Notes under the pieces: generated by a model
Database searches by the model: none
The model's input: the letters and a program-made list of their open reading frames with translations, nothing else
What the model was told of the DNA's origin: nothing
NCBI GenBank assembly: GCA_965219415.1
Contig: CBDCNP010000002.1
Span: forward strand, 5,088,001-5,152,000
Direction: 5' to 3'
DNA length: 64,000 nucleotides
Source of the DNA: Candidatus Marinacidobacterales bacterium
Lineage (GTDB): Bacteria > Acidobacteriota > Vicinamibacteria > Marinacidobacterales > DATDRI01
Program-made: the position numbers and the translations under genes
Shown here: one piece after another, positions 5,545 through 26,010 of the stretch
Layout: each line of letters opens with the position of its first letter
Position numbering within the stretch: position 1 is the first letter of the stretch

Positions 5545-6268
5545 AGATTCGCACGTTCGCGGGCAACAAGAAGACACCGAGTTGGGTCTTCGTTACAATC
5601 GAAGTCTGGTCTCGGCTCTGGCCATCGACGGTGACGGGAAGGCGAAGCTACCGGAACACTCACGCTCTGTTTCGCGACCTTTCGAGACGGATGAATTTCG
5701 AGCGTCTTCCCTTGATCGTCACGGATGGATTCGAATTCTACCAGAAAGTCATCCGTCGCTTCTTCGGTCCAGCGTGTCTCTACGGCCAGGTCCTAAAAAC
5801 GCGCAGGAACGATCGCATCATCAAGGTCGAACGCAGAGCGCTGCACGGAGCCGCGTGGCGATTCGAAGACGCGCTCAATAACTCCGAGGACTCTTCGACA
5901 TTGAACACGTCGTTCATCGAGCGGTTGAATCTGACCATCCGGCAAAGCTCGGCATACCTTTCGAGACGAACGCTTTCCCACGCTCGCTCGACGGAGAGGC
6001 TCGATGAGCACCTGGAGTTGCTCCGTTGCTATTACAACTTCGTCCGACCGCACGGAGCTCTGAAGTTCGGACGTGAGATCCGAACTCCGGCTATGCAGGC
6101 TGGTCTGACGACGCGACGGCTCACCTTTCGAGACATCTTCTTGGCGACGACGATTCCTTTGTGGTCGCGGATCGAGGTTTTCGTGCTCAGTAGGGTGCGC
6201 AACCCGGTCTCTCCCGCACCTGTACCACTGCCCGCAGCCGCGTAGCAACACTTGATGGCGGAAGCACC
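5545..6268 (+). mobile_element. 5'-truncated IS1-family transposase (CDS to 6245) plus right TIR
   Basis: DEI..F, IVTDG, NTSFIERLNLTIRQ, YYNFVRPH and TPAM motifs; TIR reads GGTGCTTCCGCCATCAAGTGTTG on the minus strand. Confidence 0.8.
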
Positions 6269-15257: not shown

Positions 15258-15525
15258 TACCGGACGTTCGCTCTTTTGCGCCGTAAAGTCCAGTCCAATG
15301 GGCGCTTCCGCGGGTGCGCAGTTCGCGGCCTGCAGCTCGTCCTGCAGCCGATTTGAGCCAGCCAGCCGTGCGTACCCCAGTGGGTCTGTCGCCCGCCACC
15401 CGCAGCCCAGGGGTCGGAAGCACGCCCCGCGGCGCGAAATACCCTGGATTCTGCGCGGATTCCAAGGGCGTCTAAGCTGCTGATTTGTGGTCTATTTCTA
15501 AAGGGCCGAGTTTTGGCACAGGACG

Positions 15526-16556
15526 AGGAGGCGTCGCTTCCACACTTCGAAGCCTTCCGCGAAGAAGACCCGCTTCCAGAGCGAGTGTTGAATCAGATCT
15601 TGGTGGGGGTATCGACCCGAAATTACGAATCGAGTCTGAACAAACCCGCGGCCAAGTTGAAGTCTCGTGGCACGAGTAAGAGTGCCGCCAGCCGTCACCT
15701 CGTGAGCCAGACGACTAAGAAGCTCGAGGAATACCTGTCTCGGCGGCTAGAGGAGTTCGAGCTTGCGGCACTGATGCTGGATGGCCTTGAGGTGGCCGGA
15801 CAGACCGTCGTCGTAACTCTAGGTATCACAATAGATGGAACGAAGGTGCCCCTGGGTATATGGCTGGGCTCGACGGAGAACTCTCGGGTGTGCACCGCGA
15901 TGTTGCAGGACCTTCTCGAGCGAGGCTTGCGCGTCGATGAGTCGATTCTCTGCGTAGTGGACGGAGGCAAAGGCATCCGCAAGGCACTCGTCGACGTTTT
16001 GGGGGACCTCGCGGTCATCCAAAGGTGCCAGATCCATAAACTCCGAAATCTTCGCTCGTACCTTCCCAAGTCTCGTCACGCCTACGTGCTCCAGACGATG
16101 AAGGAAGCCTACAAGTGCAAGAGTGCCGACAAGGCGCGCAAGCGACTTCAGGCATTGGTGTCGTGGCTCGAGCGAAACGGCTACGACGAAGCTGCCGGAA
16201 GCCTTCGTGAAGGGATGGAAGAGACACTCACGGTCGTGAAGCTCGCGCTGCCCGCCTTACTTCGCCAGTCTCTTGCCACGACGAACGCCATTGAGAATCT
16301 CAACGGAACCATTCGCAGAGTATCGAGAAACCTCAAGCGTTGGAAGAGTCCTTCCATGGTTCGCCGATGGACCGCTCTTGGCGTCGTCACCGCGCAGAAA
16401 AAGTTCCGGCGTATCAAAGGCTATCGCCATATGGGCGCTCTCGTTCACGCGCTTAGAAGCAAACAGAAATCTCTTGACAGCGATGAGTTTGCTGCCTAAG
16501 AGTATTCACAGGTGCCGTCGCTACCCGACCAAATTCAACAGCGGCCGGGACATCCC
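15526..16556 (+). mobile_element. 5'-truncated IS256 element (CDS to 16499)
   Basis: GVSTR, LMLDG, VDGGKG, QRCQIHK and TTNAIEN motifs; end ...TTCAACAGCGGCCGGGACATCCC. Confidence 0.88.
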
Positions 16557-16756: not shown

Positions 16757-17047
16757 TCAGTACTTAGACGGCGGCTCGGCTCTCTCGGCTGTCTCGGTAG
16801 GTGGGGTATATATCGCGACGCGGCGCTTTGCGGCGGCCTCGGGAGTCTCTTTGCGTCTCTGGATCGCTTCGTCGGCTATTTGGTAGGCGAGATCGGTCAT
16901 GCGCTCGACCATCATCCCACCGTATCGGCCGACCAGGCCCTCGAGGGCTTGTCCAGCAAACCAGTCGCGCAGACTCATCCCGCGATTAGCTGAGTTCGGA
17001 TCGTACCCAGGAAAAGCTGGACCGCCGTTTTTGATTGAATCTGCCAT
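16757..17047 (-). CDS. Phage-type hypothetical protein
   Basis: GGPAFP...GMSLRDWFAGQAL...AYQIAD motif recalled from small phage proteins; AGGAGA RBS. Confidence 0.7.
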   Translation of the reverse strand: MADSIKNGGPAFPGYDPNSANRGMSLRDWFAGQALEGLVGRYGGMMVERMTDLAYQIADEAIQRRKETPEAAAKRRVAIYTPPTETAERAEPPSKY

Positions 17048-17217
17048 GGTTCTATCTCTCCTTTTTCTGGCGGGTGCGCCGGGCGGAGGCCAGGAAGGCA
17101 GGCAGGATTGTCGCCCCCCCGAGGTTCGTGACCCAGCGCACCCATCATCTATTCGACGTTTTTACGAAACCCTAGCGTAAGCACGGCGATCATGAGCATT
17201 CGTCTTAGCATTTGTTC

Positions 17218-17435
17218 GGTACTTCCGCAATTAAGTGTTGGCGGCCAGCCCCTAACCGGTCTGCGTGCTAGAGTTTGAACCAGAATTCCGAAGACACAGT
17301 TCTCTCATCGTCAGAGCCGAGCCGAAGTGAAGAATCGCAGATGTCTCAATCTCACATGTCCGTTGCGAGGCAAAGTCAGTTCCAGAAACATCGTTCGCCA
17401 CGGATTCCACCGAACCAGGTCCGGGAAGCGCCGTC
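17218..17435 (+). mobile_element. IS1-family left end plus N-terminal zinc-ribbon fragment (from GTG 17327)
   Basis: TIR GGTACTTCCGCAATTAAGTGTTG; translates KNRRCLNLTCP..NIVRHG..RSGKRR. Confidence 0.7.
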
Positions 17436-17536
17436 GGTGCTTCCGCCATCAAGTGATGGAATGGACTCCTCCACTGACATAGACGGCATCGATGTGCCAA
17501 AGTCAGTCGAATACGCATCGAAAAGGAGGAGTCCGA

Positions 17537-18568
17537 ATGAAAGATACGACAATCGCTGTGGATCTTGCAAAGAACGTCTTCGAGATTGCCATCTCGGGAG
17601 AAGCGGGGAAGGTGTCCAAGCAACTCCGTGTGAGTCGACCCAAATTGGTGTCGTTCTTTGCCAAACAGAGCGCTGCCACCGTGCTTCTCGAAGCCTGCGG
17701 CTCGGCTCACTTCTGGGCAAGGACGTTCCGAAGGTTGGGACACGACGTCGTCCTGCTCCCACCTCACCTCGTGAGGCCGTATCGACGCGGGAGCAAGAAC
17801 GACCGCGCCGACACGAAGGCGTTGCTCGAGGCCTACAGGAACGAGGAGCTTCTTCCCGTACCCATCAAGTCCGTGCACCAGCACACCCTCGCTGCGCTCC
17901 ATCGCCTGCGCTCAGGATGGCTCTCCACACGGACCGCACGCATCAATGCCGTACGCGGGCTCCTGCGCGAACTCGGATTCATCATCCCAAAGGGCGCTCA
18001 CTTCGTCGTGCCCGCCCTCTTCGAACTCGTCGAAGACGCTGATTCTGATTTGCCCGACGTGCTCCGTTCGCATCTCCGTGATGCCTGCTCCGAGATTCGA
18101 GAACTCAAGGACAAGTGCGCTAGCATCGAGCACGAGCTCAAGGCGCTCACCAAGCAGCTTCCTGAAGTCCAACGACTTCTCGCCATTCCCGGCATCGGAC
18201 TTCTGGCCGCGACCGCCATCGTGGGCTTCGTCGGCGATCTTCGCCGCTTCCCATCGGGGCGCCGCTTCTCGAGCTACCTCGGCCTAGTTCCCAAGGAAAA
18301 CTCCAGTGGCGACATTCGCCGCCTCGGACGCATCACCAAGCGTGGCGACTCCTACCTCCGTATGCTCCTCACCCAGGGCGGGCGCGCCGTGCTCCGCGCG
18401 GCGAACGTCAGCAAGAGCCCGCCCGACAAGCTCCGCGCCTGGGCTCGGAAGGTCCACCGCTCGCGGGGACACAACAAGGCCGTGATTGCTGTCGCCAACA
18501 AACTCGCCCGGATCGTCTGGGCCGTCTCCACCCGCGAGAGTGAATTCCAGTCGCCGGTGGCCGCTTAG
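17537..18568 (+). CDS. IS110 DEDD recombinase/transposase
   Basis: AVDLAK, LLEACG, KNDRAD, PGIG, LGLVP..NSSG and AVANKLAR motifs; AGGAGG RBS. Confidence 0.95.
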   Translation: MKDTTIAVDLAKNVFEIAISGEAGKVSKQLRVSRPKLVSFFAKQSAATVLLEACGSAHFWARTFRRLGHDVVLLPPHLVRPYRRGSKNDRADTKALLEAYRNEELLPVPIKSVHQHTLAALHRLRSGWLSTRTARINAVRGLLRELGFIIPKGAHFVVPALFELVEDADSDLPDVLRSHLRDACSEIRELKDKCASIEHELKALTKQLPEVQRLLAIPGIGLLAATAIVGFVGDLRRFPSGRRFSSYLGLVPKENSSGDIRRLGRITKRGDSYLRMLLTQGGRAVLRAANVSKSPPDKLRAWARKVHRSRGHNKAVIAVANKLARIVWAVSTRESEFQSPVAA

Positions 18569-18599
18569 ATTTAGAGGCTCCACTTTCGTGTTTTCCTTT

Positions 18600-18800
18600 T
18601 TCCCTTCCAAAAGAGGCTGCGACGATACCCATCCAACTGATGGCGTACCGGTCGGACCGGCGCGGGGTCAAGCCAATAGCAACACTGGCCCTAAGAGGTC
18701 GTTCAAAGTGATTGGCTCCTCGCGCGCGGATTTTCCATCATGGCCCGGAGCACCCAAGACGCTCCTCACTGAGGCCGAAGATACGTTTGCAGTCTGACCC
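18600..18800 (+). ncRNA. Predicted bridge/seek RNA (boundaries approximate)
   Basis: Loop 18671-18717 carries TAGCAACAC and AAGTG (target); loop 18726-18790 carries TTCCATCAT and AGATA (donor junction). Confidence 0.8.
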
Positions 18801-19366
18801 ACTCGTCACGACGCGATGGATGCGCAGCTTCGATGGAAGATTTATTAAGAAAGGGGCGTGACTAGAAAGAAAGGGGCTTGACTAGAGGAGTCCAGATATG
18901 TTGGCGGCCGCCGCGTAACCTGTTCGCGTGCTAGAGTCTTAGCCTGATTTCGAGAGGCGCAGTTCTTTCGTCGATGCCGGCTGGGCCGAGTTTTGGCACA
19001 GGACGCGATCCCGTATGGTGCAAATAGTACGTCGAGCTCGCGTCGGCCTGTGGAGGGTTGATGACCGGATCTGCGCAAAGCGAGGATTCGATGGGCCGCG
19101 AGCCGAGGTCAATGCCACGACGATACGAAACCCACGGGGCGGCTCGGACGGCACTCGACGCTGGGCCCATCCGCGTCCTGGTCCTGGGGAAAATCGTCTA
19201 GCAAACGGTTGCCGAGACCCTGGTGATTTCTCCTGCACAGGCCTGGATCCGATGGCATCGTCAGACATATCGCCCCTTATCCAAGCACATTTGCCACGTC
19301 GGCTCGCTTGACCGGCGCATAGGCGCCCCGTAGGATACCGTAGGCCTCACCGAAAAGGAGCTTCCG

Positions 19367-24064: not shown

Positions 24065-24489
24065 CGATCACTGCCAACCCGTATGGTGCAAATGGTACGT
24101 CGAACTCGACGTCGGCCCGTGGAGGGTCGATGACGGAATCTGCGCGAAGCGAGGATTCTATGGGCGGTGCTTCCGCAATCAAGTGTTGGTGGCTGCCGCG
24201 TAACCCGCTCGTGTGCTAGAGTTTGAGCCTGATTTCGAGAGACGCAGTTCTTTCGGCGATGCGGATTGGGCTGACCACACGGTGCCTGACGTTCAGGGAC
24301 ACCTTCGTGTGCACGCCGACATCATTGTTAATGGCGTTCGCCGACACAGGCAGGCCAGCTGACACTAGCATTCAAACACGGCGTAGCAACATATCTGGAC
24401 TCCTCTAGTCAAGCCCCTTTCTTTCTAGTCACGCCCCTTTCTTAATAAATCTTCCATCGAAGCTGCGCATCCATCGCGTCGTGACGAGT

Positions 24490-24690
24490 GGGTCAGACTG
24501 CAAACGTATCTTCGGCCTCAGTGAGGAGCGTCTTGGGTGCTCCGGGCCATGATGGAAAATCCGCGCGCGAGGAGCCAATCACTTTGAACGACCTCTTAGG
24601 GCCAGTGTTGCTATTGGCTTGACCCCGCGCCGGTCCGACCGGTACGCCATCAGTTGGATGGGTATCGTCGCAGCCTCTTTTGGAAGGGAA
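24490..24690 (-). ncRNA. Predicted bridge/seek RNA, copy 2 (boundaries approximate)
   Basis: Same sequence as copy 1; target loop at 24573-24619. Confidence 0.8.
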
Positions 24691-24721
24691 AAAGGAAAAC
24701 ACGAAAGTGGAGCCTCTAAAT

Positions 24722-25753
24722 CTAAGCGGCCACCGGCGACTGGAATTCACTCTCGCGGGTGGAGACGGCCCAGACGATCCGGGCGAGTTTGTTGGCGACA
24801 GCAATCACGGCCTTGTTGTGTCCCCGCGAGCGGTGGACCTTCCGAGCCCAGGCGCGGAGCTTGTCGGGCGGGCTCTTGCTGACGTTCGCCGCGCGGAGCA
24901 CGGCGCGCCCGCCCTGGGTGAGGAGCATACGGAGGTAGGAGTCGCCACGCTTGGTGATGCGTCCGAGGCGGCGAATGTCGCCACTGGAGTTTTCCTTGGG
25001 AACTAGGCCGAGGTAGCTCGAGAAGCGGCGCCCCGATGGGAAGCGGCGAAGATCGCCGACGAAGCCCACGATGGCGGTCGCGGCCAGAAGTCCGATGCCG
25101 GGAATGGCGAGAAGTCGTTGGACTTCAGGAAGCTGCTTGGTGAGCGCCTTGAGCTCGTGCTCGATGCTAGCGCACTTGTCCTTGAGTTCTCGAATCTCGG
25201 AGCAGGCATCACGGAGATGCGAACGGAGCACGTCGGGCAAATCAGAATCAGCGTCTTCGACGAGTTCGAAGAGGGCGGGCACGACGAAGTGAGCGCCCTT
25301 TGGGATGATGAATCCGAGTTCGCGCAGGAGCCCGCGTACGGCATTGATGCGTGCGGTCCGTGTGGAGAGCCATCCTGAGCGCAGGCGATGGAGCGCAGCG
25401 AGGGTGTGCTGGTGCACGGACTTGATGGGTACGGGAAGAAGCTCCTCGTTCCTGTAGGCCTCGAGCAACGCCTTCGTGTCGGCGCGGTCGTTCTTGCTCC
25501 CGCGTCGATACGGCCTCACGAGGTGAGGTGGGAGCAGGACGACGTCGTGTCCCAACCTTCGGAACGTCCTTGCCCAGAAGTGAGCCGAGCCGCAGGCTTC
25601 GAGAAGCACGGTGGCAGCGCTCTGTTTGGCAAAGAACGACACCAATTTGGGTCGACTCACACGGAGTTGCTTGGACACCTTCCCCGCTTCTCCCGAGATG
25701 GCAATCTCGAAGACGTTCTTTGCAAGATCCACAGCGATTGTCGTATCTTTCAT
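24722..25753 (-). CDS. IS110 DEDD recombinase/transposase
   Basis: Same protein as 17537-18568. Confidence 0.95.
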   Translation of the reverse strand: MKDTTIAVDLAKNVFEIAISGEAGKVSKQLRVSRPKLVSFFAKQSAATVLLEACGSAHFWARTFRRLGHDVVLLPPHLVRPYRRGSKNDRADTKALLEAYRNEELLPVPIKSVHQHTLAALHRLRSGWLSTRTARINAVRGLLRELGFIIPKGAHFVVPALFELVEDADSDLPDVLRSHLRDACSEIRELKDKCASIEHELKALTKQLPEVQRLLAIPGIGLLAATAIVGFVGDLRRFPSGRRFSSYLGLVPKENSSGDIRRLGRITKRGDSYLRMLLTQGGRAVLRAANVSKSPPDKLRAWARKVHRSRGHNKAVIAVANKLARIVWAVSTRESEFQSPVAA

Positions 25754-26010
25754 TTGGACTCCTCCTTTTCGATGCGTATTCGACTGACTTTGGCACATCG
25801 ATGCCGTCTATGTCAGTGGAGGAGTCCATTCCATCACTTGATGGCGGAAGCACCGGTCTATTTCAAAAGGGCCGAGTTTTGGCACAGGACGGGGTCGTCA
25901 CCATGCAGATTGACCACCTAGTCGAGAGCGAATATCCAAGCGTGTTCCTGAAGCTGTTTTCACGCTACGCCGAGCGGGCCCACCGAGGGGCTACCGTCGC
26001 CAGCGACCAT

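Follow-up and report, generated by a model that had tools for sequence, protein, structure and literature searches.

The insertion sequence and its transposase

The window, by which we mean the whole 64,000-nucleotide stretch of DNA that was analysed, carries an insertion sequence of 1445 bp at 17456–18900, counting one TG. The ends of the element were read exactly from 80 uninterrupted AAGTGTTGCTA sites and from filled sites in the same genome. The sole overlap between filled and empty sites is the dinucleotide TG, found at 17454–17455 and 18899–18900. The element consists of a left end, a transposase gene, a 3′ non-coding region, and a right end, whose parts are listed in Table 1.

The transposase matches the Pfam domains DEDD_Tnp_IS110 (PF01548; 45.9 bits) and Transposase_20 (PF02371; 85.5 bits), both above their cutoffs, and the NCBIfam model NF033542, “IS110 family RNA-guided transposase,” with 302.9 bits against a cutoff of 140. 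Residues E52, D89, D92, S256, S257, and G258 are invariant across 19 homologues (59–94% identity), and D9 is nearly so. The C-terminal domain aligns to ISCro4 and IS621 in the PDB (E = 2e-8 and 9e-8). According to excerpts of PMC11187229, the IS1111 group is defined by the motif GL-P----S(t)G with the catalytic Ser-Gly; this motif reads GLVPKENSSG in the window transposase and aligns with ...ESG of ISCro4.

The other features that mark the IS1111 group concern the DNA. Subterminal inverted repeats, for which a length of 7–17 bp was taken as characteristic, measure 9 bp (GGACTCCTC/GAGGAGTCC) at distances of 7 and 5 nt from the ends, with conservation among relatives. The non-coding DNA measures 81 nt upstream of the gene versus 330 nt downstream, and insertion occurs in one sequence and in one orientation, with a duplication no larger than the shared dinucleotide. 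Judged from the letters, all features that define the IS1111 group are present. The genome (8.05 Mb, three contigs) holds about 30 full copies of the element with 99–100% identity, and the non-coding region of 28 colinear copies differs by singletons only, which points to a recent spread. The copy at 17456–18900 is intact, and the element belongs to the IS1111 group of the IS110 family and was active recently. A protein search of seven other genomes of the same taxonomic family, at E ≤ 1e-30, returned no relative, and inside the integrated element we found neither a sigma-70-like promoter nor a plus-strand terminator.

The ribosome-binding region GGAGGAGTCC (17525–17534) repeats the right subterminal repeat (18885–18893) and complements the left one (17463–17472), an arrangement that is also seen in most relatives in the left-end alignment. 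In a transcript that reads into the element from its left side, this ribosome-binding site could base-pair with the left repeat. Two further arrangements were noted among the copies and relatives. One copy (G000:C3:3315411-3316874) is joined by an extra non-coding region of about 300 bp, arranged in tandem at 3315110–3315411; after the right end of this tandem region stands GG-CTGCGACG, letters with which the conserved non-coding part begins (~18616) and which bear a loose resemblance to the target. In L061, a 98%-identical relative in another MAG, the right end is followed by CG and then by TGTTTTCC..., with which the non-coding region of another copy begins, and this suggests an insertion into, or a rearrangement with, a second copy. 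Upstream of the element, a 328-aa open frame at 15513–16499 looks, by eye, like a transposase of the IS256/mutator type.

Table 1. Positions of the element, its predicted RNA parts, and its flanks in the window
Feature	Position	Strand	Basis
Left target half: outer 18 nt of IS1-like terminal repeat (GGTGCTTCCGCCATCAAG), outside the insertion sequence	17436–17453	+	Found at 330 uninterrupted termini
TG core, left copy (crossover dinucleotide)	17454–17455	+	Filled versus empty sites, own genome
Left end, 81 nt, terminal ATGGAAT	17456–17536	+	Sequence; left-end alignment, 32 elements
Left subterminal inverted repeat GGACTCCTC	17463–17471	+	Sequence; left-end alignment, 32 elements
Ribosome-binding region GGAGGAGTCC	17525–17534	+	Sequence; left-end alignment, 32 elements
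Transposase/recombinase gene, 343 aa	17537–18568	+	Pfam, NCBIfam, homologue alignment, PDB
Pyrimidine-rich spacer after stop codon, poorly conserved	18569–18635	+	33 non-coding regions aligned
Segment U, TGATGG, equal to core plus first four left-end letters; predicted to pair with CCATCA 18735–18740	18638–18643	+	RNAalifold; 4/6 pairs compensatory, 95% of cells paired
Small hairpin CCGG-TCGGA-CCGG	18648–18660	+	3/4 pairs compensatory
Target-binding stem-loop, outer stem CGC-GGGG...AGCCAAT/ATTGGCT...CCTC-GCG	18661–18724	+	Fold; helices 3 to 6: 11/19 pairs compensatory
5′ target guide TAGCAACACT; antisense to top-strand AG-TG-TTGCTA (core with right half)	18677–18686	+	Covariation, occupancy
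Inner hairpin of target loop, GGCC/GGTC	18687–18690/18697–18700	+	Fold, RNAalifold
3′ target guide TCA[A]AG-TG, sense of left half TCAAG-TG, one extra A	18703–18710	+	Covariation with left flanks
5′ donor guide TTCCATCAT; antisense to A-TG-ATGGAA (core with left end)	18733–18741	+	Sequence, relatives, shuffles
Donor-loop inner hairpin GGCC...GGAGC/GCTCC...GGCC	18742–18776	+	Helix 8: 99% of cells paired, 1/4 pairs compensatory; fold
3′ donor guide AGATA-CG, sense of right end AGATA plus core-like CG	18779–18785	+	57/64 elements
Right end (18878–18898): TTGACT, −35-like	18878–18883	+	Sequence; conserved in relatives
Right subterminal repeat GAGGAGTCC	18885–18893	+	Sequence; conserved in relatives
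Terminal AGATA of right end	18894–18898	+	Sequence; conserved in relatives
TG core, right copy	18899–18900	+	Filled versus empty sites; 32 right ends
Right flank, TTGGCGGCCGCCGCG-type repeat, atypical target half	18901–18960	+	Only TTGGCG flank among 32 right ends

Fold of the 3′ non-coding region

A preliminary description of this DNA had proposed that the 3′ non-coding region (18569–18898) encodes a bridge-RNA-like guide with a target loop and a donor loop, and every segment that it named was found in the sequence where it had been placed. The plus strand folds with −122.3 kcal/mol (z = −3.3), which none of 100 shuffles equalled, and the minus strand gave z = +0.2; G–U pairs in the fold exist on the plus strand only. 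A search for related loci returned 80 loci from Acidobacteriota, Proteobacteria, Gemmatimonadota, and other groups, with 39–98% protein identity, and the 3′ non-coding regions of relatives from several phyla align well. In the consensus fold calculated with RNAalifold from 24 non-redundant sequences, 91.2% of 911 cells are paired and compensatory changes occur at 20 of 38 pairs, with none of 500 shuffles as good. When the fold was slid along the alignment by 1–3 columns, 26–46% of the cells paired. An Rfam scan of 17000–19300 with E-values up to 10 yielded chance-level matches to microRNAs and snoRNAs only, with no Rfam 15 family near its gathering score.

In the predicted scaffold, a small hairpin precedes a long outer stem, which encloses the target loop and its inner hairpin; a second hairpin follows, and 18638–18643 (segment U) forms a long-range helix with 18735–18740. 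The stem of the target loop, AGCCAAT/ATTGGCT, occupies 18671–18677 and 18711–18717. The outer stem that had been claimed for the donor loop, GCGGA (18726–18730)/TTTGC (18786–18790), includes two G–T pairs and holds in part: three of its five pairs are conserved, being invariant, but the last two form in 14 and 6 of the 24 sequences, respectively.

Contigs assembled from four RNA-library runs cover the gene and pieces of the non-coding region, as data that carry neither strand nor transcript ends and possibly include DNA carry-over; they were left out of the evidence for the RNA. One contig of 187 letters, from a marine-sediment RNA library (run X18, record 14), keeps the scaffold at 18647–18667 and 18771–18797, with 99 other letters in place of the 103 that hold the guides. 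This contig probably represents a relative with other guides, which is possibly transcribed.

Covariation of the target guides with the flanking DNA

The two arms of the target loop carry one guide each (Table 1), the second of which includes the AAGTG at 18706–18710 that had been pointed out before. To put numbers on their match to the flanks, we compared each guide with the junctions of its own element and with those of other elements. For 41 non-redundant elements, the 5′ guide scored 7.39 of 10 against its own right junction and 5.01 against those of other elements, and the 3′ guide scored 3.68 of 6 against its own left flank and 2.03 against others; for both guides, 0 of 20,000 permutations did as well. 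The permutation set excludes L061, L064, and L089, in which the flank is another copy or aberrant, L090 and L114, in which the non-coding region is misaligned, as well as elements without a readable left junction and duplicate guide pairs. Permutation tests of this kind are inflated by relatedness, yet the guides differ widely between close scaffolds. Covariation among homologous non-coding regions and with their flanks, which the preliminary description had named among the ways to check its proposal, was found for the fold and for both target guides, and the target loop that it had drawn agrees with these 41 relatives as well as with the occupancy of sites described later.

Relatives with other guides sit in other sequences, and about 40 relatives with readable guides and flanks document natural retargeting on one conserved scaffold. 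The extra A of the 3′ target guide seems not to be confined to the window element, since Proteobacteria-type relatives appear, by eye, to have an extra letter in the same place. The 3′ target guide keeps a single register throughout the relatives. The register of the 5′ guide relative to the crossover is offset by 3 in the window element and L101, by 4 in nine elements, and by 5 in most, and these differences of 0–2 nt, unexpected for a rigid ruler, weigh against the guide-RNA reading. A crossover placed 2 nt further left, which would fit the register of most relatives, was considered and rejected, because filled and empty sites overlap at TG only.

The target is the terminus of an IS1-like element

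The target TCAAG-TG-TTGCTA adjoins 30 of 32 right ends in the genome. It also flanks the second copy in the window (24387–25855, minus strand) and is found uninterrupted at 6243–6253 of the window. The target that had been reconstructed from the guides is real, but the right flank of the window copy itself reads TTGGCG.

The target is part of a terminus of about 29 nt that occurs 362 times in the genome, nearly always on contig C3, and whose outer 20 nt are common to all occurrences. Convergent pairs of this terminus bound a 1193-bp element and miniature elements of about 240 bp. The 354-codon frame of the 1193-bp element is IS1-like, with scores that stay below the cutoffs for both NF033558 (81.7 bits; cutoff 100) and DDE_Tnp_IS1 (22.1; cutoff 24.1), and it has no ATG, GTG, or TTG start within its first 100 codons. 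The two ends of the 1193-bp element are unlike, being of the TTGCTACGCGG type and the TTGGCGGCCAG type, for example, in L165 (G000:C2:26241-27441). In the window, 17219–17435 is the truncated left end of one copy of the IS1-like element. We also considered whether the constant 18 nt that precede the core are a piece of the insertion sequence itself. This was rejected, because these letters are present at 330 uninterrupted termini and because, within the genome, this left target half covaries with the family of the right flank.

The termini share a common left half and diverge after TG-TTG, so that the genome contains what amounts to a natural specificity experiment, in which 32 insertions of a clonal element can be compared with 330 uninterrupted termini that differ in the right half. 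Termini of the TTGCTA type are filled in 30 of 103 cases (73 empty), versus 2 of 259 for all other termini (257 empty; Fisher p = 4e-16). The letters that discriminate used from unused termini are those paired by 18677–18682. Hence, site occupancy in the genome follows the right-half target guide. The tolerance of right-half mismatches in vivo can be read from the same data: two or three mismatches nearly abolish use.

Candidate donor guides and the helix with segment U

The second hairpin is flanked by two segments that match the ends of the element itself. In 57 of 64 elements, the 3′ donor guide reads the same as the final five right-end letters, and this holds across four variants (AGATA, ATATA, ATACC, and ATACA). 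In three of the seven misses (L100, L104, and L134), a matching guide is visible by eye; in some loci, the first pattern match was a false anchor, and five loci were flagged as having several matches. For most relatives, the 5′ donor guide was seen by eye to change with the fourth left-end letter, which is variable. Because both ends of the element are highly conserved, there are few independent changes with which donor guides can be tested.

The donor loop of the preliminary description is supported, less directly than the target loop, with respect to the right-end guide but needs revision for the left-end guide, which it had drawn as a loop segment and which lies in the covarying helix with 18638–18643. 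In the consensus fold, the left-end guide is paired with segment U, so that the naked RNA is predicted not to expose this guide as a loop. In Proteobacteria-type relatives, a pair of this helix is switched from G–C to C–G, the left junction stays TG, and the left-end guide does not follow the core G. Since segment U repeats the core and the first letters of the left end, it may be a mimic that masks the left-end guide until the recombinase or the donor DNA opens it.

Taking target and donor segments together, we consider it probable that this IS1111-group element encodes a bispecific guide RNA (a bridge RNA or long seekRNA) of about 157 nt, at 18636–18792 on the plus strand. A clearly less probable reading, although one to be taken seriously, is that only the target stem-loop (~18661–18724, 65–90 nt) guides, that the protein reads the ends of the element via the subterminal repeats, and that the donor segments serve structure or processing. 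The behavior of ISEc11 speaks for such a division of labor: excerpts of PMC11187229 state that an 82-nt seekRNA without a donor part is enough for transposition and that this short form moved mini-ISEc11 more efficiently than the long form. The CCATCA at 18735–18740 is, moreover, part of a helix with 4 of 6 pairs compensatory, and the G–C to C–G switch with an unchanged TG junction indicates that the position does not follow the DNA core. Against this reading stand the 3′ donor segment, which follows four right-end variants, and the 5′ donor segment, which follows the fourth left-end letter in most relatives. The 9-nt antisense match of the window element to the left end at its circle junction, which 55 of 2000 shuffles reach, points in the same direction. 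Donor-complementary letters have also been described in the multi-loops of IS1111 bridge RNAs (excerpts of Durrant et al., PMC11208160), and the pairing of the left-end guide with segment U fits such a placement.

Core dinucleotides at the two junctions

The left junction is TG in 58 of 59 relatives, and the right-junction dinucleotide varies, being CG in 37, TG in 15, GG in 6, and another dinucleotide in 8 of 66 elements. Among the 64 elements with a usable anchor, the core letters of the 3′ donor guide are CG except in the three closest relatives, L064, L089, and L133, which have TG at this place. The core mismatch that had been noticed in AGATACG of the window element is present, but decay of this copy is excluded as its origin: the C is family-wide and matches the CG at the right junction of 37 of the 66 elements.

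Empty sites are informative with respect to the core of the target. In G008, 19 of 24 empty sites read CACCA-CG-GGCTGCTAG, and filled copies have TG on the left (8/8) and CG on the right (10/10). For this one lineage, on which the assignment of a CG target core rests, it follows that the element brings TG as donor core to targets with a CG core and that the outcome does not vary. G009 has a single empty site (CCACC-CA-GACAAGTGAA), and a pattern search in G011 and G012 returned no empty sites. With a donor core TG and CG in most targets of the family, the AGATA-CG guide matches the product junction. In IS621, the right donor guide pairs with the incoming target core, according to excerpts of PMC11208158. 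Read in the guide's own frame, the junction pattern, established for the G008 lineage, agrees with an IS621-like top-strand exchange 3′ of the core.

These observations can be combined into a tentative proposal, which we put forward as a possibility rather than an expectation. The donor and target cores, TG and CG, would be naturally different, with a fixed outcome; the 3′ donor guide would be preset to the product junction in a “core handshake”; segment U would possibly mask the left-end guide; and the direction of exchange and the engagement of the donor would be set outside the IS621 model. If true, direction and donor engagement would depend on features that are absent from the IS621 model. 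The TG/CG core asymmetry and the left-end mimic helix pose testable questions for the engineering of IS1111-type recombinases.

Proposed mechanism

The 3′ non-coding region very probably encodes a guide RNA that steers the recombinase to the end of another mobile element. Comparison with relatives shows the target guides in one covarying stem-loop, with the 5′ guide antisense to the core and right half and the 3′ guide sense of the left half and core. Two putative donor guides are arranged around the second hairpin, the 5′ one antisense to the core and left end and the 3′ one sense of the right end. Insertion takes place at the TG within the terminal inverted repeat that the IS1-like element shares with its miniature derivatives. 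By analogy with IS621 and ISEc11, the guide RNA and the transposase message would be produced together, probably by transcription from a circle-junction promoter (TTGACT, 17 nt, left end); this junction would read ...CCAGATA-TG-ATGGAATGG.... The study of ISEc11 reportedly found a junction promoter in the circle, and the TTGACT located 17 nt before the left end resembles it. On the same two precedents, the guide RNA would bind the DEDD/Ser recombinase, pair with both strands of target and donor, and place a staggered exchange at the core. The earlier reading of the locus as an RNA-guided recombinase is supported by protein typing, the covarying fold, the guide–flank covariation, and the occupancy of sites; that it is also a candidate programmable tool would follow from homology.

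Two readings that dispense with a guiding RNA have little in their favor. It is very improbable that specificity resides in the recombinase or the IS1-like transposase recognizing the terminal repeat as DNA, with no role for RNA: the 362 termini do share their outer 20 nt and all insertions are at the same TG, but termini with the same left half and another right half are filled in 2 of 259 cases, versus 30 of 103 for TTGCTA termini, the discriminating letters are exactly those paired by 18677–18682, and relatives with other guides sit in other sequences. Just as improbable is a structured 3′ untranslated region or protein-binding DNA end that guides nothing, with matches due to chance or shared repeat ancestry, for although the matches are short in isolation (11 of 2000 shuffles of the non-coding region reach the 10-nt antisense match to the target, and 2 of 2000 reach this and the 9-nt circle-junction match together), such a reading is countered by the guide–flank covariation across phyla (0 of 20,000 permutations, twice), the strand-specific covarying fold, an occupancy that follows the guide, and the experimental precedent in the family, as given in excerpts of PMC11187229 and PMC11208160.

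Comparison with known guide-RNA elements

The guide-RNA mechanism is already known for the IS110/IS1111 family and was published in 2024 (Durrant 2024; Siddiquee 2024). What the window contains is, on sequence evidence, a real and well-supported guide-RNA gene of an IS1111-group element. Like ISEc11, ISPa11, ISKpn4, and ISPst6 (PMC11187229), the window element encodes a transposase of some 340 aa that carries the GL-P----SG motif, has subterminal inverted repeats, and keeps its long non-coding region on the downstream side of the gene. A single stem-loop holds both target matches, the top-strand one 5′ of the bottom-strand one and with an overlap at the insertion point, as in IS1111 seekRNAs (Siddiquee et al. 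2024, PMC11187229), and the ~157 nt predicted here compare with 145–170 nt for the long form of the seekRNA. Unlike in the seekRNA elements, the target is an IS1-like terminal repeat and the 3′ guide has a one-letter bulge. Durrant et al. predict that 93% of IS1111 elements have a bridge RNA in their right end, in many cases with the donor letters in a multi-loop (PMC11208160).

Similarities to IS621 and ISCro4 (PMC11208160, PMC11208158) extend beyond the homologous C-terminal domain. Left halves are read via the bottom strand and right halves via the top strand, the core comprises 2 nt, and, as in IS621, the core of the target stays with the product next to the right end, with top-strand exchange 3′ of the core. 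In contrast to IS621 and ISCro4, the window element has its predicted RNA downstream of the transposase gene, with the guides in the opposite order relative to that gene, long subterminal repeats, and donor letters that belong to a multi-branch structure instead of a simple internal loop. Donor core (TG) and target core (CG) seem to differ in most relatives, whereas IS621 uses CT in both.

The choice of target also has a counterpart among known elements. Partridge and Hall are said to have described, in 2003, that IS4321 and IS5075 insert in the 38-bp terminal repeat of Tn21-family transposons. Like these elements, the window element belongs to the IS1111 family and uses a fixed position and a single orientation within a terminal inverted repeat that belongs to another transposon family. 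The host repeat differs, being the ~29-nt terminus of the IS1-like element and its miniature derivatives.

Flanks of the window copy

The right flank of the window copy is atypical. It reads TG-TTGGCG, which is the sole TTGGCG among 32 right ends, and it pairs with only 7 of the 10 letters of the 5′ target guide. On its left side, the window copy has the half-site GCCATCAAG, the form shared by all 73 of the 73 TTGCTACG termini. The right-flank repeat occurs in 17 uninterrupted copies, all of which have a different left half, GCAGTCAAG. A left half-site of the preferred type next to a repeat that otherwise has another left half indicates that the flanks (17436–17455 and 18901–18960) are chimeric; our guess is that copies were rearranged after an off-target insertion.
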